Positions 1-31,594 of a stretch of 64,000 bases of DNA are shown piece after piece (the first letter of the stretch is position 1; every line of letters begins with the position of its first letter). Location: the NCBI GenBank assembly GCA_043822245.1, contig JBDRBY010000081.1, positions 10,773 through 74,772 of the forward strand, in the 5' to 3' direction. A program made the translations under genes and the position numbers. Below the pieces are notes generated by a model. It was not told where the DNA came from, searched no databases, and saw only the letters and a list, made by a program, of their open reading frames with translations. The DNA comes from Candidatus Omnitrophota bacterium (GTDB taxonomy: Bacteria; Omnitrophota; Gorgyraeia; Tantalellales; Tantalellaceae).

Positions 1-1515
1 GACAATGTTTTTCAGATCGTCCCGATGGAAGAGCGGATATTTAGTTCAAAGTTATTGATATCACAGGTGCTGGGCAGGGGGTTGCGTATCCCGCGCAAGG
101 TTCTTAATGTTGATATCCTTCAGACCTATCCTTGGCTAACCGTAACCAATCATGAGAAGTTTGCCGGCCATATAAAAGAGCTGATGGATGCGGTTACAAA
201 TTCTGATATATATATTTTATCCGAGCCGTTGCCGATAGTTGATAAAGATAACTGGCGAAGCAAACATCATTTCTCGCTTTTTAATCTCAATTATTTATCG
301 GGAGTTAAATTTGAAGATGTCGATGAAAAGGATCAGTTGCCTCTTCCTGTAAGAGAGCTCGTATTGACAAAGTATGACGTTGATGAAAATGTTATTATTG
401 AACGGATTAAGGGCACAGAGAAATATGCCCTTAAAAAAAAGACCATTTCAGTCGATGCTTTGGTGGACGCGCGTTACCGCCGTTTTAAAAACAGGGAATA
501 CGAGGGGATACATTTTGACTTTGGGAATGGAGACTATAAGCGTTGTCCGGAAGAGGATGAGATCCGGAGCGCTATCCTTGCCGCTATGGAAAAAGCGGAG
601 ATTCCGGATAAAGGTTTAACGGAGGATAATAAAAAGCAGATAGACCTTTTCTTTAATCAATTTCTGCCTCGAGGCAAGAAAAAACGTGTATTCGAAAACA
701 TCAAGGGCGATATTGTACCTGCCAGCACGCAAAAATTAGAGCGCGGATCAATACGGGTCGGAGAGCTGGAGCGCGATGCAACGGCTTTTATCAGCGAATC
801 GTATCAAGAGGAAGTAGATGAAAAAACAAAAGCGCTGCTCAAACACCTTGCCGGTAATAGAAAGCCGAACGCACAGCAAACTCTCTTCCCTTTTGATCCA
901 ATCGGTTTGCTCAGGACACATAAAGAGTATGTTCGAGCATTGATAGAGAACGATGACCGGCCGCCTTACATTGTCAATCCGTCAGTGTTTAAGACGCCTC
1001 AAAGCACAATTCTTGTTACCCATACGCCCGAAAAGGAGTTTGTTTTTCGATTGCTTGAACATTCGCAATATTTGAATGCTTGGATAAAATCTCCGGATAA
1101 AGGGTTTTATTCGATTGATTACGAATATTGGAGGAAAGGAAAGGATCGGGTACGTCGTGGATTTAACCCTGATTTTTTCATTAAGATTAATTTGGATGAT
1201 TATATTGCCCTTTTGAAAAAGAAAGGTGCGGTAAGACATTTAGATGCGTTAAGAGATCTGCAAGAAAAAGGCATCGAGACCATCGTCAGAGTTGTAGAAA
1301 TTAAATCTGATGAAGATGATGACGAGGCAACGCCAGCCAAGGCCGAGTGGGCAAAGGCTCATTTTGAAGCCGTTAATCAGAAGCTACAGGATCCCCTGCC
1401 GGGTAATTTTGACAGGCAGTACGTAGGAGAGATAAAGCAATTCTATACATTTGACCTTCTTAAGCCGGACGGATATGTGAGTTGGTTCGAGGGCCTGAAA
1501 GAAGGGAAAATATGA
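1..1515 (+). CDS. 5'-truncated (window edge) C-terminal portion of an SF2 helicase-nuclease; Type III restriction Res-like
   Basis: Reading frame open to position 1. Helicase motif VI QVLGRGLR lies near the N-terminus of the fragment. The C-terminal region has a PD..ExK-like pattern (NPDFF ... VVEIK), which fits a C-terminal endonuclease as in Type III Res. The downstream neighbours are defense genes. Confidence 0.45.
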   Translation, partial: DNVFQIVPMEERIFSSKLLISQVLGRGLRIPRKVLNVDILQTYPWLTVTNHEKFAGHIKELMDAVTNSDIYILSEPLPIVDKDNWRSKHHFSLFNLNYLSGVKFEDVDEKDQLPLPVRELVLTKYDVDENVIIERIKGTEKYALKKKTISVDALVDARYRRFKNREYEGIHFDFGNGDYKRCPEEDEIRSAILAAMEKAEIPDKGLTEDNKKQIDLFFNQFLPRGKKKRVFENIKGDIVPASTQKLERGSIRVGELERDATAFISESYQEEVDEKTKALLKHLAGNRKPNAQQTLFPFDPIGLLRTHKEYVRALIENDDRPPYIVNPSVFKTPQSTILVTHTPEKEFVFRLLEHSQYLNAWIKSPDKGFYSIDYEYWRKGKDRVRRGFNPDFFIKINLDDYIALLKKKGAVRHLDALRDLQEKGIETIVRVVEIKSDEDDDEATPAKAEWAKAHFEAVNQKLQDPLPGNFDRQYVGEIKQFYTFDLLKPDGYVSWFEGLKEGKI

Positions 1516-1533
1516 GGATGATGAAGAAGGATT

Positions 1534-1695
1534 ATGCCGGATGATTTATTTGATGAGTTTTTGGGATACGATTTTGTTATGGGCGCGGATGTCGTGAAAT
1601 GCCCGCATTGCGGGGCCGATGTGCCCTGTAGTTTGTTTTTCGATGACGAGGTCGAATGCCCAAAGTGTGGAAAGAAGTTTAAAAAGGATGATTGA
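1534..1695 (+). CDS. small zinc-ribbon protein (53 aa, CPHC...CPKC)
   Basis: ATG at 1534 with a purine-rich upstream stretch. Two CxxC pairs (CPHCG, CPKCG). Lies between the Res-like gene and the GHKL gene. Too short for the ORF track. Confidence 0.3.
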   Translation: MPDDLFDEFLGYDFVMGADVVKCPHCGADVPCSLFFDDEVECPKCGKKFKKDD

Positions 1696-1732
1696 AAGAT
1701 GCATAGATTAAATTTAAAGCGAGGAGAGTTGT

Positions 1733-3385
1733 ATGACTGAATCACCATTTGAAATGCGGTTTGATCCTCAGACAATAAAGCATCTTGGTGTACGAATGTA
1801 TTCTAGACTTGCGCCCGCATTGGCGGAGATTGTTTCAAATGCGTATGATGCTGACGCAACTAATGTTACAATTACTTTGATCGAAAAAGACGGAAATCCA
1901 GAGGAAATACGGATTGAAGATGATGGAATAGGAATCGCATACGATGAAATCAATAGTAAATTTCTAGTAATTGGTAGAAACAGGCGTGATGCTGAAGGAG
2001 ATAATCGTTCAGAAAAGCATAAGCGCTTGCCTACCGGTAAAAAAGGTCTTGGAAAACTCGCGCTGTTTGGACTTGCCAAAACTATTACAATTTCAACAAA
2101 ACATTCCGGAACGCAAAATGAATTTGTATTAGCATGGGATGATTTGATGATAGCAAAGGGTAGTTATCGACCTAGAGCAAATAGCATTAACGTTAGCACA
2201 AGCGATGCCGATGGGACGATAATTACGTTGACAGGATTAAAACGAAAAACACCATTTGATTTTAATGGATTAGCGGACAGTTTATCTCGAATATTTATTT
2301 TCGATGAAAGTTTTAATTTGGTTCTTGAATCACCTTCGGGAGACAGAATCTCAGTAGATAATAAGAGAAAATATAGCCTATTGGATAAGGAATTTGAGTG
2401 GGATCTTGGGTCAACATTATTGGTACCTTCAGAATCTGAATATCACGGAAAAATAAACGGGCACCTAATAACTTCGGAAAAACCGATTACACCTTCTTCT
2501 GGTCTAAGAGGGATAACTCTTTTTTCGAGAGGAAAGCTTGTAAATGCTCCTGAATTTTTCTCCAGTAGCGCTTCAAGCCACTTTTTTCAATACCTTACCG
2601 GATGGATAAGTGTAGATTTTATAGATCTCTTAGACGATGATGTTATATCAACGAATCGTCAATCCATAGATTGGGAACATCCCGATATGACTAAATTAAG
2701 AAAATTTCTTTCAGGAATAGTTTCACAAATTAATGCGGATTGGAGAAAGAAAAGAAAGGAAAAAAAAGACAAAGATTTAAAAGAGAAAACCGGAATTGAT
2801 ACTGGAAAATGGATAGATACAATGCCTGACGATGTAAAAGCGAATGCAGCACAAATTATTGAGACATTAGGTGGAGAAGATGCGCTTGAGAAATTTACTC
2901 CTATAATAAAAGCTCTACACGAAATTGTGCCTGAATATCCTCTTTTACATTGGCGTCATTTACATCCTGTTGTGCAAGAAAAATCTAAGCAGTACTATAT
3001 TAATAAAGATTATTATACTGCTTTCATCGAGGCCATTAAAAAATATGCAGATTCAGTTAAACAAAAGTCCGGTAGCACTGTAACTCCCGATATCAGTTTA
3101 ATGGGGGCTGTATTCAAAGAAGCAGCGGGTGACTTAGATGTTATAGGCAATTACAAAAAACAAGATGACGGTGAATTTACAGCAGACACTAAGAATAATA
3201 TCCAAAGTGGACAACAACATTTGTCTCAAGGTATTATAGCTGGAGGACGTAATCCATTATCACATGAGGAACATGATGAATTAAGAATATCCGGTTTGTT
3301 TTCAGAAAAAGATTGCTTAGACTTACTTAGTTTATTGTCCCATTTATTTAAAAGGCTTGATAATTCCGTAAAGAGAGAGACGTGA
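1733..3385 (+). CDS. GHKL/MORC-like ATPase (HATPase_c_3) fused to a C-terminal HEPN-like domain
   Basis: Bergerat-fold motifs are present: N-box AEIVSNAYDADAT (ExxxNxxDA), G1 box EDDGIGI (DxGxG) and G2 box GKKGLGKLALFG. Near the C-terminus GGRNPLSHEEHD fits the HEPN Rx4-6H signature. The stop codon overlaps the GTG start of dcm (GTGA). Confidence 0.6.
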   Translation: MTESPFEMRFDPQTIKHLGVRMYSRLAPALAEIVSNAYDADATNVTITLIEKDGNPEEIRIEDDGIGIAYDEINSKFLVIGRNRRDAEGDNRSEKHKRLPTGKKGLGKLALFGLAKTITISTKHSGTQNEFVLAWDDLMIAKGSYRPRANSINVSTSDADGTIITLTGLKRKTPFDFNGLADSLSRIFIFDESFNLVLESPSGDRISVDNKRKYSLLDKEFEWDLGSTLLVPSESEYHGKINGHLITSEKPITPSSGLRGITLFSRGKLVNAPEFFSSSASSHFFQYLTGWISVDFIDLLDDDVISTNRQSIDWEHPDMTKLRKFLSGIVSQINADWRKKRKEKKDKDLKEKTGIDTGKWIDTMPDDVKANAAQIIETLGGEDALEKFTPIIKALHEIVPEYPLLHWRHLHPVVQEKSKQYYINKDYYTAFIEAIKKYADSVKQKSGSTVTPDISLMGAVFKEAAGDLDVIGNYKKQDDGEFTADTKNNIQSGQQHLSQGIIAGGRNPLSHEEHDELRISGLFSEKDCLDLLSLLSHLFKRLDNSVKRET

Positions 3386-4413
3386 TTAGAAATAAATATA
3401 ATGCCATAGACTTGTTTGCCGGTTGCGGCGGATTGTCGGAAGGATTGAAGCAAGCCGGATTTTGTACAATAGCGGCTTGCGAAATTGATCCGGTTGCCGT
3501 TGCGACTTACCGGCTTAATCATCCCAGTGTTACTGTGTTTGAGAACGATATTAAGCTGGTAAATACATCCGAAGTGAAAAAACTATTGGGAGGCGAGCCG
3601 GTACATTTATTAGCCGGTTGTCCGCCTTGCCAAGGTTTTTCTTCTTTGAGAAGGCTAAATAAAAAAAGATCAGTGCGGGATGGGCGTAATTCCTTAGTCG
3701 ACGAGTATTACCGATTTATTGAAAAACTCAGACCGTTAACTATCATGATGGAGAATGTGCCGGGGTTGCAAAATTATTTCAAATTTCAAAATATGATTAA
3801 GAAATTAGAAAGAATGGGCTATCGACTTGATACTGCAGTTGTCAACGTAGCTGATTACGGAGTGCCTCAACGGAGGAAAAGATTGATTGTGGTAGGTTCT
3901 TTGCTTAATGAAATAAAAATTGCGCCCAGTGTAAATATCAAGAAAACAGTGGCAATGTGTATTGGTTCCATCGAATCTATACAAGAAACGAAAGATTCAC
4001 TCCATAAAATAGTAGCGAAACATACTGATAAAATAATGGAGATGATTAGATTGATACCTAAGGACGGCGGCAGTAGAACTGATTTACCGAAAAAATATAT
4101 TTTGAAATGTCATAAACGCGACAATGTCGGATTCAATGACATTTACGGTCGGCTTAAATGGGATGATTGTTCGTCTACGATAACCGGAGGTTGTCTTAAT
4201 CCCTCAAAAGGGCGCTTTTTACATCCGTCTGAGCATCGAGCTATTACTGCTCGTGAGGCAGCTCTACTGCAAACTTTTCCTATGAATTATGAGTTTCCGG
4301 AAAATGCAACTAAAACTAAGATTGCATTAATGATAGGGAATGCATTGCCTCCGGAATTTTGTCGTTTGCAAGCGAAAAACATATTGGATCACCTGGTTGT
4401 GAATTATGGCTGA
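3382..4413 (+). CDS. dcm: C5 cytosine-specific DNA methyltransferase
   Basis: Motif I DLFAGCGG, motif IV GCPPCQGFS, motif VI ENVPGL, motif VIII QRRKR and motif X GNALPP are all present. Confidence 0.9.
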   Translation: MIRNKYNAIDLFAGCGGLSEGLKQAGFCTIAACEIDPVAVATYRLNHPSVTVFENDIKLVNTSEVKKLLGGEPVHLLAGCPPCQGFSSLRRLNKKRSVRDGRNSLVDEYYRFIEKLRPLTIMMENVPGLQNYFKFQNMIKKLERMGYRLDTAVVNVADYGVPQRRKRLIVVGSLLNEIKIAPSVNIKKTVAMCIGSIESIQETKDSLHKIVAKHTDKIMEMIRLIPKDGGSRTDLPKKYILKCHKRDNVGFNDIYGRLKWDDCSSTITGGCLNPSKGRFLHPSEHRAITAREAALLQTFPMNYEFPENATKTKIALMIGNALPPEFCRLQAKNILDHLVVNYG

Positions 4414-4825
4414 TATCTTTTCTCCGAGCAAAAGAACTGAGATAATGAAGAAGATTCGCACTAAAGATACCGGGTGCGAATTGACGGTTAGAAAGATGAT
4501 TTATGCTATGGGGTATCGCTATCGTTTACATAAGAAAAGTTTACCTGGAAACCCGGACATAGTTTTTAATAGGCGCAAAAAGGTAATATTCGTTAACGGA
4601 TGTCTTTGGCACGGATGTAAGAAGTGTAGTCGATCTAAGTTGCCGGAATCTAACGAAAAATTTTGGAAAGATAAAATTCAAGGAAATTTTGTACGGGACA
4701 AACGAAATTATAAAGAATTAAAAAAACTCGGATGGAATTATTTTTGTGTTTGGCAATGTGAGATTAAGAAAAAGAACGAAGATAAATTGAAATCGAGAAT
4801 AGATAAATATTTGAGAAGTGAGTAA
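4406..4825 (+). CDS. vsr: very short patch repair endonuclease Vsr
   Basis: FVNGCLWHGC and ...GWNYFCVWQCE align with Vsr (FxDGCFWHxH ... GWxVxxVWEC). The start overlaps the dcm stop by 8 nt. Confidence 0.85.
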   Translation: MADIFSPSKRTEIMKKIRTKDTGCELTVRKMIYAMGYRYRLHKKSLPGNPDIVFNRRKKVIFVNGCLWHGCKKCSRSKLPESNEKFWKDKIQGNFVRDKRNYKELKKLGWNYFCVWQCEIKKKNEDKLKSRIDKYLRSE

Positions 4826-4925
4826 AAATGAACTTCTCGATATTGATTTAACAATCAATAGTACAGTTAAGGATTTCATGTAATTCCGGTGTCGTGCGGC
4901 GCAGTCCAAAATAATTAAGAGTAAA

Positions 4926-5603
4926 ATGACCAAAAAAATCATATCTGAAATTGATAACGAGCTAATTGCCGAAGAAAGTATTTTGGGAAATTCTAAATTT
5001 GTTTCACCGGATGAGTGGGGTGGATTCTGTACCTATCTTTTGAAACAGAATAGATATGTTTTGAGCAAGAAATGGAAAAGATTTATTGAAACGGTTTTGT
5101 TCACAGCTAAGAAACGGGAGCATCTTTTAAAATCAGGATCGGTATTATGCCGTGCGCGTATCGGTAGCGATGAACATGAGTATGAAGATGATCAAGGTGA
5201 ATATAGAATTGATATTAATCCGTTGCCTCCACCGGAAATAGATGCTCCACTTAGCGGAAAGGCGATAGAGGGGAGAATAAATCCTAAAGGGATTTCCTAT
5301 CTTTATTTAGCAAATAGTATCGAAACAGCTATATCGGAAGTCAGACCTTGGCTCAAACAGGAAGTTACGGTGGGACGGTTTAGCCTAGGTAAAGATGTAC
5401 TCCTTGTTGACGCATCTCAGGATAAACATAGTCGGTACGTTCTTTCAGAAAGAAAGATTGAAGAGCCATCGGAAAAATGGGAACCATTTGTCTGGAGAGA
5501 TATTAACCAATCTTTTTCTATCCCGGTTATATTCGGCGAAGAGCATATTCACTATGTTCCGACTCAATATTTATCTGAATGCTTTAAAAATGCGGTAAGT
5601 TAG
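4926..5603 (+). CDS. RES-domain protein (putative NAD+-targeting toxin of Xre-RES type), with a ~70-aa N-terminal extension
   Basis: LCRARIG ... GRINPKGISYLYLANSIETAISEV matches the RES-domain Arg, Glu and Ser conserved blocks (YRARxG ... GRxNxxGxxxLYxAxxxxTAxxE). Confidence 0.5.
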   Translation: MTKKIISEIDNELIAEESILGNSKFVSPDEWGGFCTYLLKQNRYVLSKKWKRFIETVLFTAKKREHLLKSGSVLCRARIGSDEHEYEDDQGEYRIDINPLPPPEIDAPLSGKAIEGRINPKGISYLYLANSIETAISEVRPWLKQEVTVGRFSLGKDVLLVDASQDKHSRYVLSERKIEEPSEKWEPFVWRDINQSFSIPVIFGEEHIHYVPTQYLSECFKNAVS

Positions 5604-5660
5604 GGGGACACAATACTTAATTATGGCAAACAGAGAAATGAATTAAGTATTGTTTCCCTC
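5603..5660 (+). repeat. imperfect 22-bp inverted repeat (tagggggacacaatacttaatt / aattaagtattgtttccctcta) with an 18-nt spacer, overlapping the stop codon of the RES gene
   Basis: 19/22 complementary positions. It sits at the downstream edge of the defense island. Confidence 0.6.
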
Positions 5661-5696
5661 TAACTTACTGAATTATAGAAATTTTAATTTAAAAAA

Positions 5697-5730
5697 ATAC
5701 CCCGTGGTCCTCCTTTGAAAAGGGGGAAAC
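5697..5730 (+). repeat. Repeat B-like hairpin
   Basis: cctcctttgaaaagggggaaac. Confidence 0.4.
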
Positions 5731-5747
5731 ATCACGCTGTTTATTTC

Positions 5748-5790
5748 AGGCAAAGCAGCCGTAGAGACGCGATTAATTGCGTCTCTGCCA
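5748..5790 (+). repeat. Repeat A partial copy (hairpin-1 module gtagagacgcgattaattgcgtctc)
   Basis: Shares gtagagacgcga...tcgcgtctc with copies 1 and 2, but the loop differs. Confidence 0.5.
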
Positions 5791-5856
5791 AATTTTTGTC
5801 GTCAACTATTTCTGTAGGTTGCATTTTCCGCGCCGATTAGGTATATTTGAGGTACT

Positions 5857-6225
5857 ATGGTATGGGAAGGAATGGACGAGAGAAGATTCCCCAGGGTTAA
5901 ATACACATGTTTGATTAAGGTGCATGGCGAAGATCAAGAAAAGCCGATTGAAGCCTTTACCGAAAACATTGGAACTGGAGGGGTATGCGTGATTGTGGAA
6001 AAGGAGTTTAAGCTTTTTGAGGGAATATCTCTTGAGATAGCATTAGGTGATGGAGGAGATATAATTTTATGTAAAGGAACAATAGTATGGGTGGTGAAAA
6101 AACACTGCGTAAAGAAATTAGAGAAAAACACATATGACGTTGGTGTGGAATTTTTAGATATACTGAAGGAAGATAAACAGCGCGTAGCCAATCTTGTTCA
6201 AGCGGGTTCAATTGCTAAAACTTGA
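5857..6225 (+). CDS. PilZ domain protein (c-di-GMP receptor family)
   Basis: RxxxR motif (ERRFPRV) and DxSxGG-like motif (ENIGTGGVCV). An alternative start ATG lies at 5872. Confidence 0.65.
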   Translation: MVWEGMDERRFPRVKYTCLIKVHGEDQEKPIEAFTENIGTGGVCVIVEKEFKLFEGISLEIALGDGGDIILCKGTIVWVVKKHCVKKLEKNTYDVGVEFLDILKEDKQRVANLVQAGSIAKT

Positions 6226-6302
6226 CATCCAAAAACGCGCGTGATATACTCCACGGCGATTGGATTTTTTAAGTCTATTTCGAAGAAGGAGGTGAAAAAA
6301 TT

Positions 6303-6632
6303 ATGCAGAGGATAGTAAAAACGTTATTTGTTTGTTGCGTTGTTGTATCTATGGTAGGTATGGCCGCTCAGTGTTACGCTCAGGATCCAGCGAAAAAATT
6401 AAGCAGGGGCATTGCTAATGTCTTGACGGGTTGGGTAGAGCTCCCCAAAAATATCTATGAAACAAGCGTTGAAGAAAATGTGCTCTCTGGCCTTACGATG
6501 GGTCTGGCCAAAGGTGTTGGTATGACAATAGTTAGAACGGGCGCTGGTGTCTATGAGGCAGTGACGTTTCCGTTTCCAATACCAGAAGAATATGAGCCTG
6601 TCTTAGAGCCTGAATTTGTATTTAGTGAATAA
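6303..6632 (+). CDS. small secreted protein, exosortase-system-associated TIGR04073-like
   Basis: N-terminal signal peptide, then SRGIANVLTGWVELP, resembling the TIGR04073 core. The call is from recall and not verified. An RBS (aaggaggtgaaaaaatt) precedes the ATG. Confidence 0.35.
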   Translation: MQRIVKTLFVCCVVVSMVGMAAQCYAQDPAKKLSRGIANVLTGWVELPKNIYETSVEENVLSGLTMGLAKGVGMTIVRTGAGVYEAVTFPFPIPEEYEPVLEPEFVFSE

Positions 6633-6733
6633 TTTTACGAAGATGATTAATCAATCATTTGGACGAAAAGGGAGCGATTAGACGTCGTTCCTTTTCCGTT
6701 TTAGGAGACGTTTCTACAAAAAAAGGAAAACTT

Positions 6734-7093
6734 ATGGGAGAAAAGAGAAAATACATGCGGTTTGATGTTTTGCTTGAGGCGGTATGCTATACAGGAAAAG
6801 CGTTAAAAAAGTTAAAAGTAAACAATTTTTGCAAAGAAGGAATAGGCATATTAAGCGCTTCCCCTTTTTCTCAGGGGAAAGCTCTTGAGATAGAAATGAT
6901 GATTCCCGGAGATAATGTTCCGATAGTGGTTGAGGGTGAGATTGCCTGGACAAGCGCGGCAGTTTCAGATAATATGCAATATCAGGGAGGTGTTAAGTTT
7001 AAAAAAATTAGCAACGAGGATAAGAGCAGAGTGCTTGAGTACATTTATAAAAATTGGATAAAAAACGAGGGTCCTGAAAAAAACAATGAATAA
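6734..7093 (+). CDS. PilZ domain protein
   Basis: The ATG at 6734 is preceded by aaggaaaa. It has the RxxxR motif (KRKYMRF) and the GxG motif (KEGIGI). The ORF-track start at 6659 is a TTG extension. Confidence 0.6.
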   Translation: MGEKRKYMRFDVLLEAVCYTGKALKKLKVNNFCKEGIGILSASPFSQGKALEIEMMIPGDNVPIVVEGEIAWTSAAVSDNMQYQGGVKFKKISNEDKSRVLEYIYKNWIKNEGPEKNNE

Positions 7094-7103
7094 TGGAGGA
7101 AAA

Positions 7104-7391
7104 ATGAACTTAGATGAACAGAAAAAAGATGAAATAAATGAAACTGAAAATAAGGAAGAAAAGCCGAAACAAGAGGAGTCTTCCAAACAAGAAAAGAAGA
7201 AAGAATCTCCAAAAGAAAAAAAGGGTGACGCGAACCAGCCTAAACGTACGGCCCCTCTTAAACCTGCCGAATGCGCAGGATGTAGCAAGGCGTTATTGAA
7301 GAAGCTGTGGTATTACCGCGATGACGCTTTCTATTGCAATAAAAAGTGTTATAAGCGAAAGATAGAGGCGGACAGAAAGAAAGAAAAATAA
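7104..7391 (+). CDS. Lys/Glu-rich low-complexity protein with a C-terminal CxxC...CxxxC zinc-ribbon
   Basis: The RBS ggagg lies 8 nt upstream of ATG 7104. The N-terminus is highly charged and K/E-rich, followed by ECAGC...CNKKC. Confidence 0.4.
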   Translation: MNLDEQKKDEINETENKEEKPKQEESSKQEKKKESPKEKKGDANQPKRTAPLKPAECAGCSKALLKKLWYYRDDAFYCNKKCYKRKIEADRKKEK

Positions 7392-7512
7392 ATTCGCAAG
7401 ACGCGTAGATAACCACGGGCGGGGTTTAGACCACGCCTGCGGCTTTGTCGAAGGCGGCACGCTCTACATTTGATTTTTATCTTGTTGAAAAATACAAGGC
7501 GCGTGTTATAAT

Positions 7513-7869
7513 ATGTCCATTGTGGCGGATGATTGTATTTTTTGCAAAATGGTGGAAAAGAATGTAAATGCCGAGACGGTTTACGAAGATGAAGAGGTTA
7601 TGGCGTTTAAGGATCTCAAACCGCAGGCTCCGGTTCATTTCCTTTTTATACCCAAAAAGCACATTTCTACTCTGAATGATATCTCGTGTCAAGATGTTGT
7701 TTTAATTGGTAACTTGTTTGCGAGAATTAAAGAAGTTGCCCATAAAAAGGGCTTAGATAAAGATGGATACCGTGTGGTCGTAAATTGTGGTAAAAATGCT
7801 GGGCAGGAAGTTTTTCATTTGCACGCGCATCTCCTGGGAGGCAGAGTTTTTTCATGGCCCCCGGGATAA
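7513..7869 (+). CDS. HIT family (Hint-like) nucleotide hydrolase
   Basis: Histidine triad HLHAHLLGG, plus the conserved N-terminal CIFCKM...VYEDEE...AFKD block. Confidence 0.85.
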   Translation: MSIVADDCIFCKMVEKNVNAETVYEDEEVMAFKDLKPQAPVHFLFIPKKHISTLNDISCQDVVLIGNLFARIKEVAHKKGLDKDGYRVVVNCGKNAGQEVFHLHAHLLGGRVFSWPPG

Positions 7870-7917
7870 GACGCGAACAACGAGCGACGAACGACGAGAG
7901 ACGAATAGGAGGATAAG

Positions 7918-8283
7918 ATGGAACATAAAAATGAACGCCGAAACTATCCGCGCGTGAAAGACGAAAATGTGTCTGTTAAACTGTCAGGGGAAGGCTTCAA
8001 TACTATTACACAAAGTCTGGATTTAAGCGCTTCAGGTGTTTATTGTAAGGTGGCCGAACGCATACCCTTGATGACACGAGTACAGGTTGTTCTTGTTCTT
8101 CCTGCCAAACAAAACTCATCTTCTGTAACTATGAATGTTGAAGGAGTTGTTGTAAGAGAGAATTCGCTTAAAAAAGACGGCAAGGTAGAACAGTATGATA
8201 TTGCTATTTTTTTTAGCAGCCTTTTGCCGAAAGAGAGAAAACAACTCATGCAATACATTAGCCGAAAATTAATACAGAGTTAA
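7918..8283 (+). CDS. PilZ domain protein
   Basis: ERRNYPRV (RxxxR) and DLSASGVYCKV (DxSxGG-like). RBS ggagga upstream. Confidence 0.65.
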   Translation: MEHKNERRNYPRVKDENVSVKLSGEGFNTITQSLDLSASGVYCKVAERIPLMTRVQVVLVLPAKQNSSSVTMNVEGVVVRENSLKKDGKVEQYDIAIFFSSLLPKERKQLMQYISRKLIQS

Positions 8284-8347
8284 TCGGTCCTTCCATTCCG
8301 CTTGAGCGCGAGCCAATAGCAGAGATAATAGGAGAATAATTTTTGAT

Positions 8348-8884
8348 ATGGGGATTTTGGTAAAACAAAAACCGGTCAAATTGGCAGTGAGTATAATCTT
8401 TAAAGATGAAGACTGCCGTTGGCGGGCAGAAGAGTGTTTAGTCAAAAAATATGGAAAGGTCGAGCCTGTAAATACGATACTTCCGTTTGATTTTACGGAT
8501 TATTATAGTGAGGAATTCGGCGAACCATTAAAAAGACAGCTCATGTGTTTTAAAAGATTGGTGGATAATGAAAAAATCTACAAGATAAAGCTAGAAACTA
8601 ATAAAATCGAAGATAGTTTTAAGAAAAATGGAAAAAGAGTCGTAAACATAGATCCAGGGTATGTTACGAAAGCAAAACTTGTGCTGCTCTCTACGAAAGA
8701 TTACTCTCATCGCGTGTACATAGGAGGAAAAATATTCGCGGAAATAACTCTTTTTTTTCAAGGAGGCACTTTTAAGTCCCATCCATGGACATATCCGGAT
8801 TACGCTTCTCAAGAAATAGTATCCTATTTTAATAAAGTTCGAGCAATTTACAGGGATGAAATTAAAAACAATCATGTTTATTAA
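8348..8884 (+). CDS. conserved hypothetical protein (DUF4416-like; assignment from memory, unverified)
   Basis: 178-aa ORF with RBS. It carries NIDPGYV...KLVLLSTKDYSHRVY...PWTYPDY blocks. Confidence 0.4.
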   Translation: MGILVKQKPVKLAVSIIFKDEDCRWRAEECLVKKYGKVEPVNTILPFDFTDYYSEEFGEPLKRQLMCFKRLVDNEKIYKIKLETNKIEDSFKKNGKRVVNIDPGYVTKAKLVLLSTKDYSHRVYIGGKIFAEITLFFQGGTFKSHPWTYPDYASQEIVSYFNKVRAIYRDEIKNNHVY

Positions 8885-9455
8885 ACGAAAACACCTGTCT
8901 GTTATTCTTTTTTCCTCCATTGTCATTACAGTTGTTTTTGTTTGTACACTTCTGGGTTATATGCTCTACATACAGTGGAAGAAGGACAGTTATGCTTTGA
9001 ATTATAGCGACTCGATATGTAAATTGACGGCCGAGTTATTTGAAAAAGATATAGTTTTATCTAATGTGCGGGTTAAAGTTGAAGAGAAGGAATCTTTCCC
9101 CGATGTGCCTTTTATCGAAGGAAGCATTAAGAACAATTCGAATAAAGTTGTGACTTCTATCCTGATAGAAGCATCATTTTTAAAATCTGATGGGACAGTT
9201 GTTTATAAAGACTGGTTCTGTCCTTTGGGCGAAAGGTTCGCGCGCCAGAATTTTGGCGCGCCTGTTTTATTTTCGAGCATACGAGAAACAATAAATGTCC
9301 TTATGCCGGGAGAAAGTTTGCCGTTCAGGCATGTATTGAAAAACTGTCCCCGTGAGATTATCTCTCAATTTTTTTCAAGAATGGAATTTGCCAGAAATAA
9401 TTCAGAGGGTAAGATAAAGTTGGTTTATTCAATTTCAGGTATTGGTGTTTTATGA
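8856..9455 (+). CDS. membrane-anchored hypothetical protein
   Basis: N-terminal TM helix (VILFSSIVITVVFVCTLLGYMLY). It overlaps both neighbours, which suggests an operon. Confidence 0.4.
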   Translation: MKLKTIMFIKRKHLSVILFSSIVITVVFVCTLLGYMLYIQWKKDSYALNYSDSICKLTAELFEKDIVLSNVRVKVEEKESFPDVPFIEGSIKNNSNKVVTSILIEASFLKSDGTVVYKDWFCPLGERFARQNFGAPVLFSSIRETINVLMPGESLPFRHVLKNCPREIISQFFSRMEFARNNSEGKIKLVYSISGIGVL

Positions 9456-11287
9456 AGAAGATAACTGTAGTATTTTTTCTGTCCGTTTTTTTTATGATTA
9501 CTCTTATGGGGATGACGTTTTTCTATATCGATTTGAGCGGACATAAAGGGTATAGCTATGATGTAGTGGACAACAAAGACAAAGTTTTAGGAACAGTTAA
9601 GGTGGACAGATATGTCACAGAGGATAAGATAATTTTTAAAAGTAAAGGGGCGTTTCCTTGTTTTTTAAATTATTCTAAAGTAACGGAAAGGATGTTTTTA
9701 AAAAAGAAAGACGCGTCATTTCTCAAATTTGTTAGAGAAACATACGATGAAAAATGGCAAAAGCGATTAGTTATGATTACTCAAGAAAAGGGAGAAGCCG
9801 ATTCTTTATTTTTGGAGCACCCGAGGTTCGTTAATCTGGAAAATGTTAAAATAGGGTATAAAACTATAGTTTTTTCTCCAGATGACATTATGTTATATAA
9901 AGCTTTGCTGGAGAGGTATAATTTTTGGAAAAAAGGCGCGCAGTTTTTTAAAGTTTATATCCCGATAGAGGAAATGATTCCTCCTCTAATCGATAAGATA
10001 ACAGTCAGGTTTCTCCAGGATGAATATATTCCCGTAATGGGTCGCAGGGTTGAAACGGAAAGTTACATAATCAGCTCAAAGATACTGCCAAAGGCGAAAG
10101 TATTTTTGTCAAAATATAATCACGAAATTTTGGCTTTAGAAATAAAAAAATTAGGACTGAGATTTACCCTTACAAATTGTATAAAAAATCCCGTTAATCG
10201 GATAAAAGCTATGGTAAGACAATTAACCTTCTGGTCAGATTGTGTACAGAAAATATTTCAACCGAAGACTTCCGTTGTAGAGGCAAATGTTGCAAATGAG
10301 TCTGAGGAAAAGAAGAAAAACGCGAGTGGTAGTGGAATCGGGGAAATCGCTCAGGAAGTAAAGACGCCGGAAGAAGTGTTTTTTGAAAGTGACGGCCAAA
10401 TATTGGCAGGCCGTCTGCTGCGTCCTCACGGGGGAGTGGTTTGTAATGCCGTTTTAATTGTTCCAAAAGACGGACCGATGTCAAAAGCGGAACGTTTTTT
10501 TGTTGATTCTTTAGCGGAAAAATTATCGCAACAAGGTTTCGTTGTTATGGCTTATGATAGCCAGGGATGCGGCAAGAGTCAGGGATTTTTTACGGATCTG
10601 GATGATAAAAAGAGAACACAAAACATTATTTCCGCTGTCGCGTATTTAAAGACTTGTCCATATGTTAATAAGCTTTCCATTAATATTATCGGGCACGAAG
10701 GAGGGGGCGTTATCGCGTTAAAAGCGGCTACTAATTTAGATTCTGTCGTAGGGTGTGTCATGTTGGCGGTGCCTCCGGGGTTGATAAAATCCAGTTTATT
10801 TCCAAATGCGTTAAAAGAACATATTCAGGTGGTGCTCAATACCAGGGGATTTGAGTCTTTTAATGAAGAAGACATTAACAATTTAACGGAAACAGCAAGA
10901 GCCCACTTTGCGAAGGTAGTTCAAAATAATGAAAATTTTTGTTTTTTTGAAGGAATAAAGATTCCAATGAAGGAATATAGAGAATTTCTTTTACGCGATT
11001 CCGCTGAAACAATACTTTCCTTTAACAAACCACTTTTGGCGGTTTTTGGAAGAGATGACAAATATTTTAATCTCCAAGTAGTTGATGGGATTAAAGAAAA
11101 GTTTGCTAAAAATGAATGCAAGAGAAAAGTAACGGTGTTTAAGAGACTTGAAGATTACGTGGAGAATAATGCCTATTTAACAAATGTCAGGGGATATGGT
11201 TTTGGCAGAACATTTCTGAATGAAGAGGTATTCACGTGTATCGCGAAGTGGCTTAAAGAGAACAACCGGCAGTATGACGGGATATAG
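9452..11287 (+). CDS. membrane-anchored protein with a C-terminal alpha/beta-hydrolase-like fold in which the nucleophile elbow reads GHEGGG
   Basis: N-terminal TM helix. The C-terminal region resembles a dienelactone-hydrolase/peptidase-S9-like fold (VVMAYDSQGCGKS...IIGHEGGGVIALKAA). Confidence 0.45.
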   Translation: MKKITVVFFLSVFFMITLMGMTFFYIDLSGHKGYSYDVVDNKDKVLGTVKVDRYVTEDKIIFKSKGAFPCFLNYSKVTERMFLKKKDASFLKFVRETYDEKWQKRLVMITQEKGEADSLFLEHPRFVNLENVKIGYKTIVFSPDDIMLYKALLERYNFWKKGAQFFKVYIPIEEMIPPLIDKITVRFLQDEYIPVMGRRVETESYIISSKILPKAKVFLSKYNHEILALEIKKLGLRFTLTNCIKNPVNRIKAMVRQLTFWSDCVQKIFQPKTSVVEANVANESEEKKKNASGSGIGEIAQEVKTPEEVFFESDGQILAGRLLRPHGGVVCNAVLIVPKDGPMSKAERFFVDSLAEKLSQQGFVVMAYDSQGCGKSQGFFTDLDDKKRTQNIISAVAYLKTCPYVNKLSINIIGHEGGGVIALKAATNLDSVVGCVMLAVPPGLIKSSLFPNALKEHIQVVLNTRGFESFNEEDINNLTETARAHFAKVVQNNENFCFFEGIKIPMKEYREFLLRDSAETILSFNKPLLAVFGRDDKYFNLQVVDGIKEKFAKNECKRKVTVFKRLEDYVENNAYLTNVRGYGFGRTFLNEEVFTCIAKWLKENNRQYDGI

Positions 11288-11373
11288 ACATTTTCAAAAG
11301 CCTGGGTTTAAACCGAGGCTGTGTTCGAGAGAGAAAGTGCCATAAATTGTTACGCTGGTGATGCTTAATGTAT

Positions 11374-11402
11374 TTGACGTATTTGGCGTGATGTGTTATA
11401 CT
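11374..11402 (+). promoter_or_regulatory. sigma70-like promoter TTGACG-17-TATACT upstream of the PilZ gene at 11419
   Basis: TTGACG at 11374-11379 and TATACT at 11397-11402. Confidence 0.45.
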
Positions 11403-11418
11403 TTTGCGCGGTAGAAAA

Positions 11419-11787
11419 ATGAAGCTGAAATTACCTGAAAGAAGGCGTTTTGTCAGGATAGACGTTCCTTTAAGGATAGTCGTTAAGGGTAATGGCTATA
11501 GTGAGGAAGTGCTTACTAAAAACATTTCTCCTCTGGGTTTTAATTTTGAGGCAAACCGAAAGTTTGAAGAGTCTGAAAGTCTGTCCATATTGTTGTACAT
11601 CCCGTCATTAGATGATCCTGTCTCTATTCTCGCGAAAGTTGTGTGGCAGAACAAAGTAAACCTGGAAGATAACGCGCCATATGATATGGGAGTGGAAATC
11701 GTTGAAATAGATGATACGAAAAAAGATGTTTTTTTGAAATATTTGTGCGATTTGTTATACGAATCAGTCTATGAAGAACGGGCATAA
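11419..11787 (+). CDS. PilZ domain protein
   Basis: ERRRFVRI (RxxxR) and NISPLGFNFE (xxSxxG). ATG 11419 lies downstream of the predicted promoter at 11374-11402. Confidence 0.65.
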   Translation: MKLKLPERRRFVRIDVPLRIVVKGNGYSEEVLTKNISPLGFNFEANRKFEESESLSILLYIPSLDDPVSILAKVVWQNKVNLEDNAPYDMGVEIVEIDDTKKDVFLKYLCDLLYESVYEERA

Positions 11788-11826
11788 CCGTATTATTAGG
11801 TGAAAAACAACAGGAAAGGGTAGAGA

Positions 11827-12618
11827 ATGGCACAGAAAGCGTTAAATGACATTGTAATCTCGAAAGCTATAATCGAAACATTTTCAAAGAAACTGATTAA
11901 ATGCCTTAAAATAGATGTTGCTATCGTTGGTGCCGGGCCCGCGGGGCTCACTGCCGGCTACTATTTAGCCAAATCTGGAATAAAAGTTTCCCTATTTGAA
12001 CGAAAACTCAGTATCGGGGGCGGGATGTGGGGAGGCGGCATTATGTTTAATCAAATTGTCGTTCAAAGTGCGGCGAGAGACATCTTGGAAGAATTTGGAA
12101 TTCCTTCAGAATTGTACCAAAAAGACTATTATACGGCGGACTCAGTGCAGGCTGTTTCCACGCTTTGTTCAAAGGCGTCATTAGCGGGAGTTAAGATTTT
12201 TAATCTTATGGAGGTTGAGGACCTTTTGATCAAAAATAACAAAGTGAAAGGCCTGGTTATAAACTGGTCGGCAGTTGGTTTAGCCAAACTGCATGTGGAT
12301 CCTATCAGCATTGAAACTAAATTTGTGATAGATGCCACAGGCCATCCGTGTGAAATTTCACGTTTACTTGAAACTAAGTCCAAAAAGAAATTATCCACAG
12401 AGACAGGCGGTGTTGTGGGTGAAGAGTCAATGTGGGCTGATGTGGGAGAAAGAGCGATGCATATGAACACAAGGGAAATTTTTCCCAACGTGTATGTCGC
12501 GGGTATGGCCGCGAACGCGGTTTTTGGCAGTCCTCGAATGGGCCCCATTTTTGGAGGGATGCTCATATCCGGAAAAAGAGTGGCGGAGTTGGTAAAACAG
12601 AAGATCGTTGGCCGTTAG
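11827..12618 (+). CDS. thi4: thiazole synthase Thi4 family (sulfide-dependent ADP-thiazole synthase)
   Basis: [21 protein letters not shown]-binding motif and overall Thi4 similarity (GGGMWGGG). Confidence 0.8.
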
Positions 12619-12620
12619 TC

Positions 12621-12678
12621 CGTTAACGGTCAGCAAGCTAACGATCAACGGCCTAACGATCAACGGTCAACGATCTAG
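12621..12678 (+). repeat. CAACGG/ACGATCAACGG short tandem repeat tract upstream of panD
   Basis: gctaacgatcaacggcctaacgatcaacggtcaacgatc. A related tract lies at 49151-49210. Confidence 0.6.
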
Positions 12679-12696
12679 AATTTGAAAAGGAGAAAT

Positions 12697-13050
12697 ATGT
12701 TAAGGACATTGTGTAAATCAAAAATAACTAAAGCGTATGTTACAAATAAGCAGTTACAGTACGATGGCAGCATAGGAATCGATAAAGCGATAATGGACAC
12801 GGTTGATATCATGCCGGGCGAACAAGTCCAGGTGCTTAACGTTGACAATGGAGAGAGGATTACCACATACGCGATAGAAGAAAAACAGGATTCAGGAAAG
12901 ATTGTGCTGTATGGCCCCGCGGCTAGAAAAGGCGAAGCCGGAGACCAGTTGGTAATACTGGCCTATTGCTTATTGGAAACAAAAGAAAGCCATAATTTTA
13001 AGATCCGTACAGTTAGTTTGGGAAAAAATAACCAATGCAAGAATAAATAA
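12697..13050 (+). CDS. panD: aspartate 1-decarboxylase
   Basis: MLRTLCKSKITKAYVT...YDGSIGID matches PanD, including the Gly-Ser self-cleavage site. RBS aaaggag. Confidence 0.85.
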   Translation: MLRTLCKSKITKAYVTNKQLQYDGSIGIDKAIMDTVDIMPGEQVQVLNVDNGERITTYAIEEKQDSGKIVLYGPAARKGEAGDQLVILAYCLLETKESHNFKIRTVSLGKNNQCKNK

Positions 13051-13598
13051 TGAAACGTTTAGAGGTAAAACTATATCCGGACCCTTGTTTGAGAATAAAG
13101 ACTAAAACTGTTGAAAGTTTTACGGAAGAAATAGAAGAAACTTTGCGCGTAATGGCGGATATTATGTACGAAAGGCAGGGAATTGGCCTCGCGGCTACTC
13201 AGGTTGGGCTTGGATTGAGCATGATGGTTATTGATACGGGAAGTGGCTTAAGGGCGTGCGTGAATCCTGAAATTCTTGAAAAATCAAAAGAATGTTCTCA
13301 GACGGAAGAGGGCTGTCTTAGTTTTCCAGGGCTAACTGTCAATATAGCAAGGCCGGAAAAAATAAAAATACGAGCTAAGAATGAAAAAGGTGAATTGTTT
13401 ATTCAAAAGATGGAGGGGTTGGATGCCAGGGCTTTTCAGCATGAATTGGATCATCTTCAGGCGAAATTAATCATAGATTACCTGGACCCCGTAAGACGTT
13501 GTATAGCTGTGCTTAGGCGAGGACGGATAAAAAAAATATGTGAGGTTGTGTGTAATGTTGGAAAAAACCATACAAGACGAAGTAATAAAAGCTCTTAA
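13050..13598 (+). CDS. def: peptide deformylase
   Basis: Motifs GIGLAATQVG, EGCLSFPG and HELDHL. Confidence 0.9.
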   Translation: MKRLEVKLYPDPCLRIKTKTVESFTEEIEETLRVMADIMYERQGIGLAATQVGLGLSMMVIDTGSGLRACVNPEILEKSKECSQTEEGCLSFPGLTVNIARPEKIKIRAKNEKGELFIQKMEGLDARAFQHELDHLQAKLIIDYLDPVRRCIAVLRRGRIKKICEVVCNVGKNHTRRSNKSS

Positions 13599-14010: not shown

Positions 14011-14021
14011 ACAATCATTAG

Positions 14022-15239: not shown

Positions 15240-15271
15240 GTAGTGAATAGTGGGGTAGAGGGAGATTAGCT

Positions 15272-17137: not shown

Positions 17138-17180
17138 ATACCCCCTTTTCCAAAGTGGGGGAAAATTGTGGGCATTTAAT
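17138..17180 (+). repeat. Repeat B copy (inverted relative to 37040-37078)
   Basis: cccccttttccaaagtgggggaaaattgtgggcatttaat is the reverse complement of 37040-37078 (38/40 identity). Confidence 0.75.
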
Positions 17181-31588: not shown

Positions 31589-31594
31589 GCCAAG

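Follow-up and report, generated by a model that had tools for sequence, protein, structure and literature searches.

A GHKL-HEPN, Dcm and Vsr module at the right-hand end of a probable defence island in a Candidatus Omnitrophota genome

BbrUII and HgiDII are SalI isoschizomers that cut DNA; proteins of their Type II family (NF050001) contain a GHKL+S5+linker module and are paired with a C5-methyltransferase. The 'R.NmeAIP' subfamily has an N-terminal GHKL domain and a C-terminal Hypoth_Ymh domain (PMC2441816). It is named after the NmeAI system of Neisseria, which consists of M.NmeAI (methylating CCGG), the putative R.NmeAIP and V.NmeAI, and these M, R and patch-repair genes have a mosaic evolution (PMC3787668). 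Fusions of paraMORC and Ymh domains in R-M operons have been proposed as analogues of PrrC and RloC (PMC3710099, PMC2292703), and Iyer et al. suggested in 2008 that the components of MORC/paraMORC operons work jointly (PMC2292703). The architecture of GHKL-Ymh, Dcm and Vsr was already described between 2008 and 2013; the literature searched contains no experimental report of activity for any GHKL-Ymh protein. VcSduA, a member of paraMORC3 (Shedu type I-D), combines GHKL with a nuclease, and its anti-phage defence needs both the ATPase and the nuclease residues (PMC12137116).

Here we describe a locus with a module of this kind at positions 1-5660 of a 64,000-nucleotide stretch (the whole of which is called the window) from a Candidatus Omnitrophota MAG. 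ORF calling yields six ORFs on one strand, g1 to g6 (Table 1). Domain matches of g2 to g6 are to a Zn-ribbon, HATPase_c_3 plus Hypoth_Ymh (HEPN), DNA_methylase, Vsr and RES, and the core side downstream has the ordinary genes PilZ, HIT, Thi4, CorC, GltD-like and CarB. The initial annotation had placed six defence-type genes ahead of housekeeping genes, and all six ORFs were recovered at those places. Taken as a whole, the locus is likely to be the right-hand end of a bacterial defence island of ordinary type, built from independent modules. The data directly support which genes and domains are present, the conservation of catalytic motifs, the mobility of the cassette and the truncation of the last gene. 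The GHKL-HEPN, dcm and vsr genes had been listed as separate signatures; they are all present, but together g3-g5 (1733-4825) are one known unit, an NmeAI-like GHKL-HEPN + Dcm + Vsr module.

Table 1. Coordinates of the features at the island end (positions in the window).
Feature	Position	Strand	Description
g1	1-1515	+	last 504 aa of a Type III-like Res (SF2 helicase + putative PD-(D/E)xK-fold tail); cut by window edge
Helicase motif VI QVLGRGLR, g1	64-87	+	Q22, V23, G25, R26, R29 invariant across 28 members of the family
Putative nuclease motif NPD(391)...E433-I-K435, g1	1165-1305	+	conserved across the g1 family
g2	1534-1695	+	53-aa CxxC...CxxC zinc-ribbon protein
g3	1733-3385	+	paraMORC-type GHKL+S5 ATPase fused to Ymh-family HEPN; 'R' component of NmeAI-like module
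GHKL ATP-binding motifs, g3: E32xxxN36xxD39xD41, D63xG65xG67, G102KKGLGK108	1826-2059	+	invariant in 26 homologs
HWRHLH motif, g3	2948-2965	+	HEPN-variant swap junction; invariant; DNA identity lost past 2964
HEPN catalytic dyad R506-N-P-L-S-H511 (Rx4H), g3	3248-3265	+	R506, H511 invariant in 26 homologs, both HEPN variants
g4	3382-4413	+	C5-cytosine DNA methyltransferase (Dcm); motifs I, IV, VI, VIII, X; 4-nt overlap with g3 stop
g5	4406-4825	+	Vsr very-short-patch repair endonuclease; 8-nt overlap with dcm stop
g6	4926-5603	+	3'-truncated RES-domain gene (remnant) without its last 55 codons
Hairpin	5595-5668		28-bp arms 5595-5622 / 5641-5668, 26/28 paired, 18-nt loop
Terminator-like palindrome + T-run	5761-5788	+	candidate transcription-unit end

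The g3 protein matches PF13589 (2e-23, aa 26-138) and PF09509 (7.5e-19, aa 408-542), with weak MutL matches of its GHKL domain in NCBIfam. Foldseek with the predicted structure (AF2 pLDDT 80) retrieves MORC2, MORC3, MORC4 and Hsp90 at E about 1e-12 over ~400 columns. The BbrUII/HgiDII profile NF050001 matches aa 6-379 only (1.6e-66, profile positions 1-398 of 659); membership of g3 was rejected at 225 bits against a 550-bit cut-off and partial profile coverage, and a genuine family member, L127, reaches 800 bits across the full profile (positions 1-659). True relatives of BbrUII/HgiDII share aa 1-380 of g3 and the acidic segment DFIDxxDxxxISTNR (aa 295-309), and then continue into an RRxDFL...IIELK C-terminus without HEPN. 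In g3, HEPN takes the place of this domain of ~260 residues, whose reading as D..ExK-type is drawn from three sequences together with one NucS_C match below threshold. At the DNA level g3 is 80-85% identical to loci from Cloacimonadota, Aminicenantes and Parcubacteria up to position 2964, where identity is lost. The two parts of the gene differ accordingly in L010-L012, L022 and L027: 81-85% identity for the N-terminal part against 34-35% for the C-terminal part.

The methyltransferase g4 matches PF00145 (4.5e-61), TIGR00675 and PADLOC MTase_II (1.7e-87), and contains the motif sequences FAGCGG, PPCQGFS, ENVPG, QRRKR and GNALPP. For g5 the matches are PF03852 (1e-28) and TIGR00632 (3.5e-40, 137 bits against a cut-off of 97.85). 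Of 88 loci surveyed, 82 have dcm directly beside GHKL-HEPN. Vsr is an accessory of the module, since only 24 of 42 well-flanked loci have it (22 immediately adjacent); the other 18 have dcm + GHKL-HEPN and no Vsr within 3 kb. The Dcm-linked GHKL-HEPN module is very widespread, with thousands of members across phyla. It is located in defence islands, beside many different neighbours, and is autonomous in most loci. Another Omnitrophota MAG (L007) has a cassette that is ~99% identical over 1701-4400 and 96.8% over the whole match (1651-4812), with flanks that differ from those here on both sides. The 3' half of g5 differs from the L007 copy, which points to a recombination breakpoint near 4600. 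Given the L007 copy, the cross-phylum identity of the g3 N-terminal part and the outlying GC3 of g3 (see below), we regard g3-g5 as horizontally mobile.

Compared with NmeAI, g3 has the same R architecture of N-terminal GHKL and C-terminal Hypoth_Ymh (PMC2441816) and g3-g5 form the same trio of C5-MTase, R and Vsr, with mosaic evolution of the three genes in both (PMC3787668 for NmeAI). Furthermore, g3 aligns over its full length (aa 1-548, 39.5% identity, E 3.5e-121, tblastn) to an N. gonorrhoeae ORF between dcm and vsr, a copy (L125) interrupted by two stop codons. The differences are the gene order (R-M-V here, M-R-V in Neisseria), an identity of only about 40%, and the Type III-like res gene that adjoins the cassette here. 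With VcSduA and other paraMORC proteins g3 shares, according to the structural model, a MORC-like GHKL+S5 fold followed by a C-terminal nuclease-type effector. However, the effector is HEPN in g3 and the PD-(D/E)xK domain DUF4263 in VcSduA, and VcSduA acts alone whereas GHKL-HEPN is paired with a methyltransferase (82/88 loci). The anticodon nuclease gene prrC sits inside the EcoprrI locus, and the cassette of L010 and L011 lies much like it between Type III mod and res genes. PrrC and RloC also resemble g3 as R-M-linked fusions of an NTPase to a HEPN-type domain, and the Ymh-paraMORC fusion was noted in R-M neighbourhoods earlier (PMC3710099). Their ATPase is of the ABC class, in contrast to GHKL in g3, and the g3 module brings its own Dcm and Vsr.

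Judging from its sequence, g1 would be a res gene of a non-canonical Type III-like R-M family, of which the window contains the 3' two-thirds. The gene had been described as cut by the window edge, and indeed 504 of ~850 aa lie in the window, including motif VI as the sole part of the helicase core. The QVLGRGLR and PD...EIK patterns named at the outset are both conserved across the family: N389, P390 and D391 (within NPDFF, 1165-1179) are invariant, and E433, I434 and K435 (within VEIK, 1294-1305) are at least 90% conserved. Homologs of full length (54-76% identity) have the domains PF04851 (ResIII) and PF18766 (SWI2_SNF2). A PF01555 Mod-type methylase precedes them directly in three of four contexts (L003/L004, L100 and L101) and is absent upstream in the fourth (L006). 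The Mod partner of g1 would be expected just upstream, beyond the window. Two modification-based systems thus probably stand side by side, as was proposed: the homologs of g1 follow a Mod-type methylase, and g3-g5 are an autonomous dcm-linked module.

With regard to the Type III Res layout, the order of helicase and then putative nuclease was retained, but canonical EcoP15I-type membership was not. Like EcoP15I/EcoPI Res, the g1 family has an SF2 ResIII helicase followed by a C-terminal putative PD..ExK nuclease in ~850 aa, and directly follows a PF01555 methylase (640-730 aa). It differs in having no PF19778 match and no sequence match in the PDB, its profile misses the canonical Res proteins found in L010 and L011, and g1 has no assignment in either NCBIfam or PADLOC. 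The g1 family is a distinct one, with a C-terminal domain that lacks an existing model. The small g2 matches Pfam Zn_ribbon_3 and Zn_Ribbon_1 just above the cut-offs, and 46 proteins, chiefly from Omnitrophota MAGs, make up its 90% cluster. Its L007 copy is 85% identical and preceded by a different gene; g2 is missing from all other GHKL-HEPN loci surveyed.

The sixth gene had been called a RES toxin, a label that does not hold: g6 is a truncated remnant and has no Xre partner. Its match to PF08808 (3.4e-8) covers only profile positions 11-111 of 157. All 90 RES homologs of sufficient length are 255-300 aa long, and one of 91% identity (P0332) runs 55 aa past the break. The conserved C-terminal YKSS...GYNVVLFD segment is missing, homology stops at nt 5594, directly before the hairpin start, and no 3' remnant was found elsewhere in the window. 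No Xre/ParS antitoxin gene adjoins g6 (vsr lies upstream across a 100-nt gap, and there is no ORF between g6 and PilZ), nor do full-length homologs have such a neighbour. An intact RES-Xre toxin-antitoxin pair was rejected on the incomplete RES domain, the missing antitoxin gene and an NF049844 score of 16 bits, where the cut-off is 110. The g6 gene shares with ParST-type RES-Xre systems the RES domain PF08808 with conserved R117 and E138 regions. Its family differs by an extra N-terminal domain of ~100 aa and by its occurrence as solo genes in defence islands and ICE-like elements.

The substitute stop codon of g6 (5601-5603) lies inside a stable hairpin (dG -40 kcal/mol, z -9.3). An imperfect 22-bp inverted repeat had been reported here at 5603-5660; it does overlap the RES stop, but the arms are longer and span 5595-5668. 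The suggestion that this repeat bounds the island was not borne out, as it is one local hairpin, confined to the right end and single-copy in the window; a second copy was likewise not found in the comparison loci or IMG/VR. Rfam returned only generic hairpin models, every match below the gathering score. In our reading g6 is a non-functional RES gene that was cut short at a recombination scar; the hairpin marks this scar, which is probably also the junction of island and core. The palindrome further downstream probably ends the transcription unit. Related palindromes occur at 31432-31456 and 54676-54701.

Base composition sets g3 apart: its GC3 of 0.254 is the lowest among the 59 window genes (z about -3.9; core 0.405, sd 0.039), and its GC of 0.364 compares with 0.445 for carB, in line with the earlier impression of an AT-rich GHKL gene. 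The same check across the island gives a mixed result. Mildly atypical values are seen for g6 (GC3 0.319) and g5 (GC 0.343), but g1 is typical (GC3 0.43) and g4, like g5, has a GC3 of about 0.36, within roughly 1.2 sd of the core. Horizontal acquisition, suggested for the island as a whole, is supported for g3-g5 and is not reflected in the composition of g1. One could suppose that the region is simply ancestral DNA in which the composition of g3 is gene-specific. The typical GC and GC3 of g1 fit this, as does an equally high overall AT content in several core genes at 8.3-11.3 kb. Moreover, no integrase was found among the ORFs of 1-9000, no tRNA in the window and no flanking direct repeats around the island, whose left border lies beyond the window. 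Nonetheless we consider ancestral DNA very improbable. The genomic context varies, given that the cassette is nearly identical in L007 between unrelated flanks and that the closest g1 homolog is followed by an entirely different set of genes; the 80-85% identity of the g3 N-terminal part in other phyla and the truncated RES gene, a mark of the junction, also argue against it. Another possibility is that g1 and g3-g5 form one composite system, in which a paraMORC ATPase acts with an SF2 helicase-nuclease, Dcm and Vsr. Neighbourhoods of paraMORC, SFII helicase, DCM and Vsr recur (PMC2292703), Type III mod and res genes enclose the cassette in both L010 and L011, and six further loci have ResIII- or Mod-type neighbours. 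We judge such a composite improbable, and keep to an island of independent modules.

How the module would work can be outlined from its components. Dcm would mark the host sites, and Vsr would repair the T:G mismatches that arise from 5mC deamination. GHKL-HEPN would be the effector that methylation restrains: on binding ATP it may dimerise and clamp DNA, as do MORC, MutL and the paraMORC3 protein VcSduA. On DNA that Dcm has not marked, the HEPN domains at the two C-termini would then meet and form an active Rx4H site. All enzymatic activities, the methylation gating and the RNA target are predictions in this outline. HEPN nucleases that have been characterised cleave RNA without metal, by way of its 2'-OH (reviewed in PMC3710099). 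Because HEPN, an RNase fold in its characterised members, replaces the D..ExK-type domain of the BbrUII/HgiDII scaffold, we favour RNA cleavage with growth arrest, resembling abortive infection, as the output, although our confidence in it is about evenly balanced. The fuller reading is more tentative: a methylation-gated RNase that reads DNA methylation status and cuts RNA in abortive infection, with effector domains (HEPN variant A, HEPN variant B and D..ExK) swapped at HWRHLH on a constant MORC-like scaffold.

The main alternative, that GHKL-HEPN is a conventional DNA restriction endonuclease cutting unmethylated Dcm sites through HEPN or a hidden metal site, seems to us rather unlikely but deserves weight. 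REBASE-style naming (R.NmeAIP) treats the GHKL-Ymh protein as a DNA restriction enzyme, the N-terminal 380 aa are homologous to the DNA-cutting BbrUII/HgiDII (E 1.6e-66), and pairing with dcm fits classic R-M logic. The acidic segment common to both (DFIDxxD...ISTNR) could be a DNase site that has escaped recognition; this and the naming count against RNA cleavage. On the other hand, the protein lacks the D..ExK-like C-terminus of the BbrUII type and has HEPN in its place, and characterised members of that fold cleave RNA independently of metal. The near constancy of the R protein (80-85% identity over the N-terminal 410 aa of g3), while Dcm partners diverge to ~60%, counts against both readings. 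Yet another role would be that g3-g5 are no defence system at all but a self-contained Dcm and patch-repair module in which a MutL-like GHKL protein aids Vsr. In E. coli MutL stimulates Vsr, and the functional interaction of the two is cited in PMC2292703; the weak MutL matches of the GHKL domain and the adjacency of Vsr in 22/42 loci agree with this. We find it very unlikely, since the 18/42 loci without Vsr have the same dcm + GHKL-HEPN pair, the invariant Rx4H site would have no role, and the module sits in defence islands. Also, the R gene is interrupted by an IS element in L014 and carries stop codons in N. gonorrhoeae (L125), the kind of decay that toxic R genes show (PMC3787668). Were the methylation-gated RNase reading true, this widespread Dcm module would be R-M-like in sensing the methylation of incoming DNA, but would cut RNA.

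ORF calling of the window recovered all six same-strand genes that the initial annotation had combined into a defence island (positions 1-5660), and the families matched in profile searches are listed in the table. Exact protein matches link the window proteins to GenBank accessions MFH1799115.1 to MFH1799119.1. The genes beyond the island are indeed housekeeping genes (two PilZ genes, HIT, DUF4416, Thi4, CorC/CNNM, a GltD-like oxidoreductase and CarB). The initial observation was largely right. Its interpretation, a defence island that combines two modification-based systems and bears signs of horizontal transfer, was right in outline. As a locus the island is routine, and every component is of an already-described kind.

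Positions of the island genes and of neighbouring features in the window
Feature	Window position	Profile match	Remarks
g1	1-1515	no family matched	Type III-like res fragment, open at window edge
g2	1534-1695	zinc-ribbon models	
g3	1733-3385	HATPase_c_3 (aa 26-138) and Hypoth_Ymh, a HEPN family (aa 408-542)	GHKL-HEPN gene
g4	3382-4413	DNA_methylase (4.5e-61)	dcm
g5	4406-4825	Vsr	vsr
g6	4926-5603	RES domain, partial	
Hairpin arms	5595-5622 / 5641-5668		26/28 paired, 18-nt loop
Palindrome with T-run	5761-5788		terminator-like
PilZ flank	5857		
180-bp direct repeat	31410-31589, 54655-54833		two copies, 92% identical
Other short dispersed repeats, direct and inverted	24474-24588 / 40098-40213, 17141-17197 / 37078-37022, 39232-39289 / 49049-48992		81-95% identical

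The AT-richness reported for the GHKL gene relative to the core is evident: g3 has a GC of 0.364 (carB 0.445) and, at 0.254, the lowest GC3 among the 59 window genes (core mean 0.405, sd 0.039). The block as a whole does not stand out, however. Composition is mildly low for g6 (GC3 0.319) and g5 (GC 0.343), g4 deviates at most about 1.2 sd from the core, g1 is typical (GC3 0.43), and several core genes at 8.3-11.3 kb equal the island genes in overall AT-richness. Composition alone therefore flags g3, not the whole block, as foreign.

Two elements had been over-read: the RES toxin gene is dead, and the inverted repeat thought to bound the island is not a border. All g6 homologs of sufficient length have 255-300 aa and run on past '...SECFKNA' with GYxGIxYKSS...GYNVVLFD, a segment missing from g6; a 91%-identical relative is 55 residues longer. 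Homology to every homolog ends at nt 5594, directly before the hairpin (dG -40 kcal/mol, z -9.3), whose left arm gives g6 two foreign codons and its stop codon. Given this homology stop, the missing 3' part and the position of the hairpin, g6 is a dead, 3'-truncated remnant and the hairpin marks a deletion or recombination junction, coincident with the island/core boundary. The displaced RES 3' end expected from an insertion was not found anywhere else in the window. The hairpin is a single-copy local structure and not half of a repeat pair: no copies were found elsewhere in the window or in the homolog loci, nor an exact match in IMG/VR, and its candidacy as the terminal repeat of a MITE or mobile element was dropped for these reasons. 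A known ncRNA was likewise rejected, since Rfam returned only generic hairpin microRNA models below the gathering score. The terminator-like palindrome just past the island is separate from the hairpin. It is related to the palindrome GAGACGCGATTTATCGCGTCTC with which both copies of the 180-bp repeat start; this repeat is possibly an intergenic element of REP-like or terminator-associated type.

The published HEPN/RES-NTD1 domain was also considered for the N-terminus of g6 but found no support, as RES was the only Pfam match of g6 at E <=0.01. Two settings are seen for full-length g6 homologs, which are solo genes: an ICE-like element, and a defence island where they lie beside a Gabija-like pair. 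Since an Xre antitoxin is never adjacent at those two loci, the family does not qualify as a classical RES-Xre toxin even when intact.

The g1 fragment begins shortly before helicase motif VI (QVLGRGLR, nt 64-87). It has 2,491 database relatives, many labelled 'type III restriction enzyme' by JGI, and the full-length ones (820-875 aa) contain ResIII and SWI2_SNF2 domains. The PD...EIK residues pointed out in the initial annotation are well conserved among 28 homologs (N389-P390-D391 invariant, E433-I434-K435 at least 90%). The post-helicase region of ~500 aa matched no model in Pfam and no sequence in the PDB, even with a 22-sequence profile. A PF01555 methylase (Mod, 640-730 aa) in the same orientation lies upstream of g1 homologs in three of four independent contexts: L003/L004, L100 and L101, the latter with an MNT-HEPN toxin-antitoxin pair inserted between mod and res. 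Mod is absent at the g1-homolog locus L006. Type III Res proteins of the canonical kind (PF04851 + PF19778), as encoded in loci L010 and L011, are not matched by the g1 family profile. Judged from sequence, g1 would resemble Type III Res in its working while belonging to a distinct family, with a C-terminal domain for which there is no model.

GHKL-HEPN, dcm and vsr are present as claimed, but they form one known module rather than separate signatures. The genes overlap by 4 nt (g3/g4) and 8 nt (g4/g5) in an operon-like fashion; g4 carries the full set of C5-MTase motifs and g5 the PD and CxWHxC elements of Vsr. Residues 6-379 of g3 align to positions 1-398 of the 659-position NCBIfam BbrUII/HgiDII model (1.6e-66) with 225 bits, which is below the cut-off of 550 bits, and PADLOC type II REase models also match this N-terminal part. 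Because the AlphaFold model of g3 (pLDDT 80) resembles MORC2, MORC3, MORC4 and Hsp90 over ~400 residues (E ~1e-12), the N-terminal region can be identified as a GHKL + S5 'paraMORC' module. Among 26 homologs the ATP-binding residues (E32, N36, D39, D41, D63xGxG67, G102KKGLGK108), the HWRHLH motif (aa 406-411; window 2948-2965) and the HEPN dyad R506x4H511 are invariant.

This arrangement has already been described in the literature. Orlowski and Bujnicki (PMC2441816) listed 'R.NmeAIP' as a putative REase subfamily that has GHKL at the N-terminus and Hypoth_Ymh at the C-terminus, and the methylation target of M.NmeAI is CCGG (PMC4676702). The R-M operons in which paraMORCs were defined also contain cytosine methylases, Vsr and SF2 helicases (Iyer et al., PMC2292703). 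Anantharaman et al. (PMC3710099) assigned Ymh to HEPN; they noted that it is fused to paraMORCs in R-M neighbourhoods and suggested a role like that of PrrC/RloC. In line with the NmeAI type of Neisseria, g3 matches over its full length an N. gonorrhoeae gene located between dcm and vsr (39.5% identity, E 3.5e-121). GHKL-Ymh proteins paired with Dcm yield >2,400 matches in Omnitrophota, Nitrospirota, Planctomycetota, CPR bacteria, Neisseria and Burkholderia.

Horizontal transfer, as initially suggested, is apparent from a near-identical cassette (g3-g5) in L007, a locus of a second Omnitrophota MAG. DNA identity is 96.8% over window 1651-4812; most 100-nt windows within 1701-4400 reach 98-100%, with a drop within vsr from about 4600. 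The flanks are unrelated to those of g3-g5 in the window: a PLD-SNF2 helicase, an Eco57I-type methylase, SMODS and a SLATT-like gene lie upstream, and genes for hemerythrin, cupin and DsrE follow downstream. Over its N-terminal 1.2 kb, g3 shows 80-85% DNA identity to copies in three other phyla, whereas the HEPN part and dcm of these copies are only about 65% identical. Protein identity is 81-85% for the N-terminal 411 aa against 34-35% for the HEPN domain, and the Dcm partners are only ~60% identical although the GHKL part is nearly constant. The breakpoint falls at HWRHLH (mosaics L010-L013, L022 and L027), and two HEPN variants occur (GGRNPLSHEE and GFRNPISHGP), which show no clear pattern of co-variation with Dcm type of the kind that would bear on the C-terminus as target reader. 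The GHKL-HEPN proteins are thus mosaics. Together, the near-identity in unrelated flanks, the cross-phylum identity and the breakpoint argue for a recombining module that has spread horizontally. Viral contigs rarely carry it: IMG/VR yielded three full-length matches.

Some further observations concern these loci. In L007 (7953-8114 and 9735-9781) the SMODS cyclase and SLATT-like gene lie between the zinc-ribbon gene and GHKL-HEPN, flanked by a ~45-nt direct repeat that corresponds to the zinc-ribbon gene's 3' end; this suggests cassette insertion or recombination via that gene. An IS3-like element interrupts the GHKL-HEPN gene of a betaproteobacterial MAG (L014 10001-12866) and two in-frame stops are present in that of an N. 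gonorrhoeae strain (L125 4001-5623), an inactivation that fits a gene which is costly or toxic. These islands probably hold a further R-M-like system, a PLD-SNF2 helicase paired with an Eco57I/MmeI-type methylase: in L099 (1-10482) it adjoins the RES family, followed by a Gabija-like OLD-TOPRIM + UvrD pair, and in L007 (1287-7949) the zinc-ribbon/GHKL cassette.

The neighbourhoods of 88 loci encoding g3 relatives help to decide whether the island holds one system or two. The GHKL-HEPN gene adjoins dcm in 82 of them. In close relatives, with 69% identity or more, the genes run GHKL-dcm-vsr; in the more distant ones dcm precedes GHKL, and vsr can lie to the left or right. Among the 42 loci flanked on each side by 1 kb or more, 24 have Vsr within 3 kb; a role of the GHKL protein as Vsr helper is weakened by the 18 loci without Vsr. 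A 41-locus neighbourhood count ruled out g1 as obligatory partner of g3. A copy of the 53-aa zinc-ribbon gene g2, with 85% identity, lies in L007 behind a different upstream gene, and the 90%-identity cluster of g2 (46 members) stems mostly from Omnitrophota MAGs. Being absent from every other GHKL-HEPN locus surveyed, it was rejected as a general part and is no core component of the module. Two stacked modification systems, as originally proposed, is the better reading compared to a Res helicase that forms part of the g3-g5 system. In two loci, L010 (Cloacimonadota; 7146-15753) and L011 (Aminicenantes; 353-8656), a canonical Type III mod and res enclose the GHKL-HEPN/dcm/vsr cassette, and in L101 (3661-9529) the MNT-HEPN toxin-antitoxin pair likewise lies between mod and res of a Type III-type system. 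The prrC gene is placed in a comparable way inside EcoprrI.

BbrUII and HgiDII are DNA-cutting enzymes. Their true relatives (L127 2965-4995, 800 bits; L128 3138-4880; L129 2932-4875) have the GHKL-S5-linker in common with g3, including the acidic DFIDxxD...ISTxR segment, but end in a ~260-aa domain with RRxDFL...IIELK (D...(E/D)xK-like) where g3 has HEPN. This domain was labelled 'unassigned' in 2008; the motif, together with a sub-threshold NucS_C match in one of the three relatives, hints at a PD-(D/E)xK nuclease. DUF4263/Shedu was rejected here, as there was no Pfam match and just the weak NucS_C. The comparison points to effector displacement, in which the scaffold would be kept and the nuclease exchanged for HEPN. 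In VcSduA (paraMORC3), defence requires the GHKL ATPase and the C-terminal PD-(D/E)xK nuclease alike (PMC12137116). By analogy, g3 may form a dimeric clamp, driven by ATP, through which its C-terminal effector is controlled, with DNA without the Dcm mark as the trigger. Since characterised HEPN enzymes are metal-independent RNases (PMC3710099), RNA cleavage upon this trigger is favoured, with roughly an even chance of being correct; direct DNA cleavage by g3 seems less likely. Our literature search found no measured activity for GHKL-Ymh proteins, though their listing as putative restriction enzymes goes back to 2008.

Summarizing, the locus provides examples of defence-cassette shuffling: insertion between mod and res, recombination within vsr and a domain swap at a conserved motif. 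Its value lies in the g3-g5 module with its abundant GHKL-Ymh/Dcm proteins. The shared scaffold and the exchange of the nuclease for HEPN lead to the prediction of a methylation-based self/non-self system acting via RNA cleavage. If true, the effector of a very common Dcm-linked module would act on RNA.
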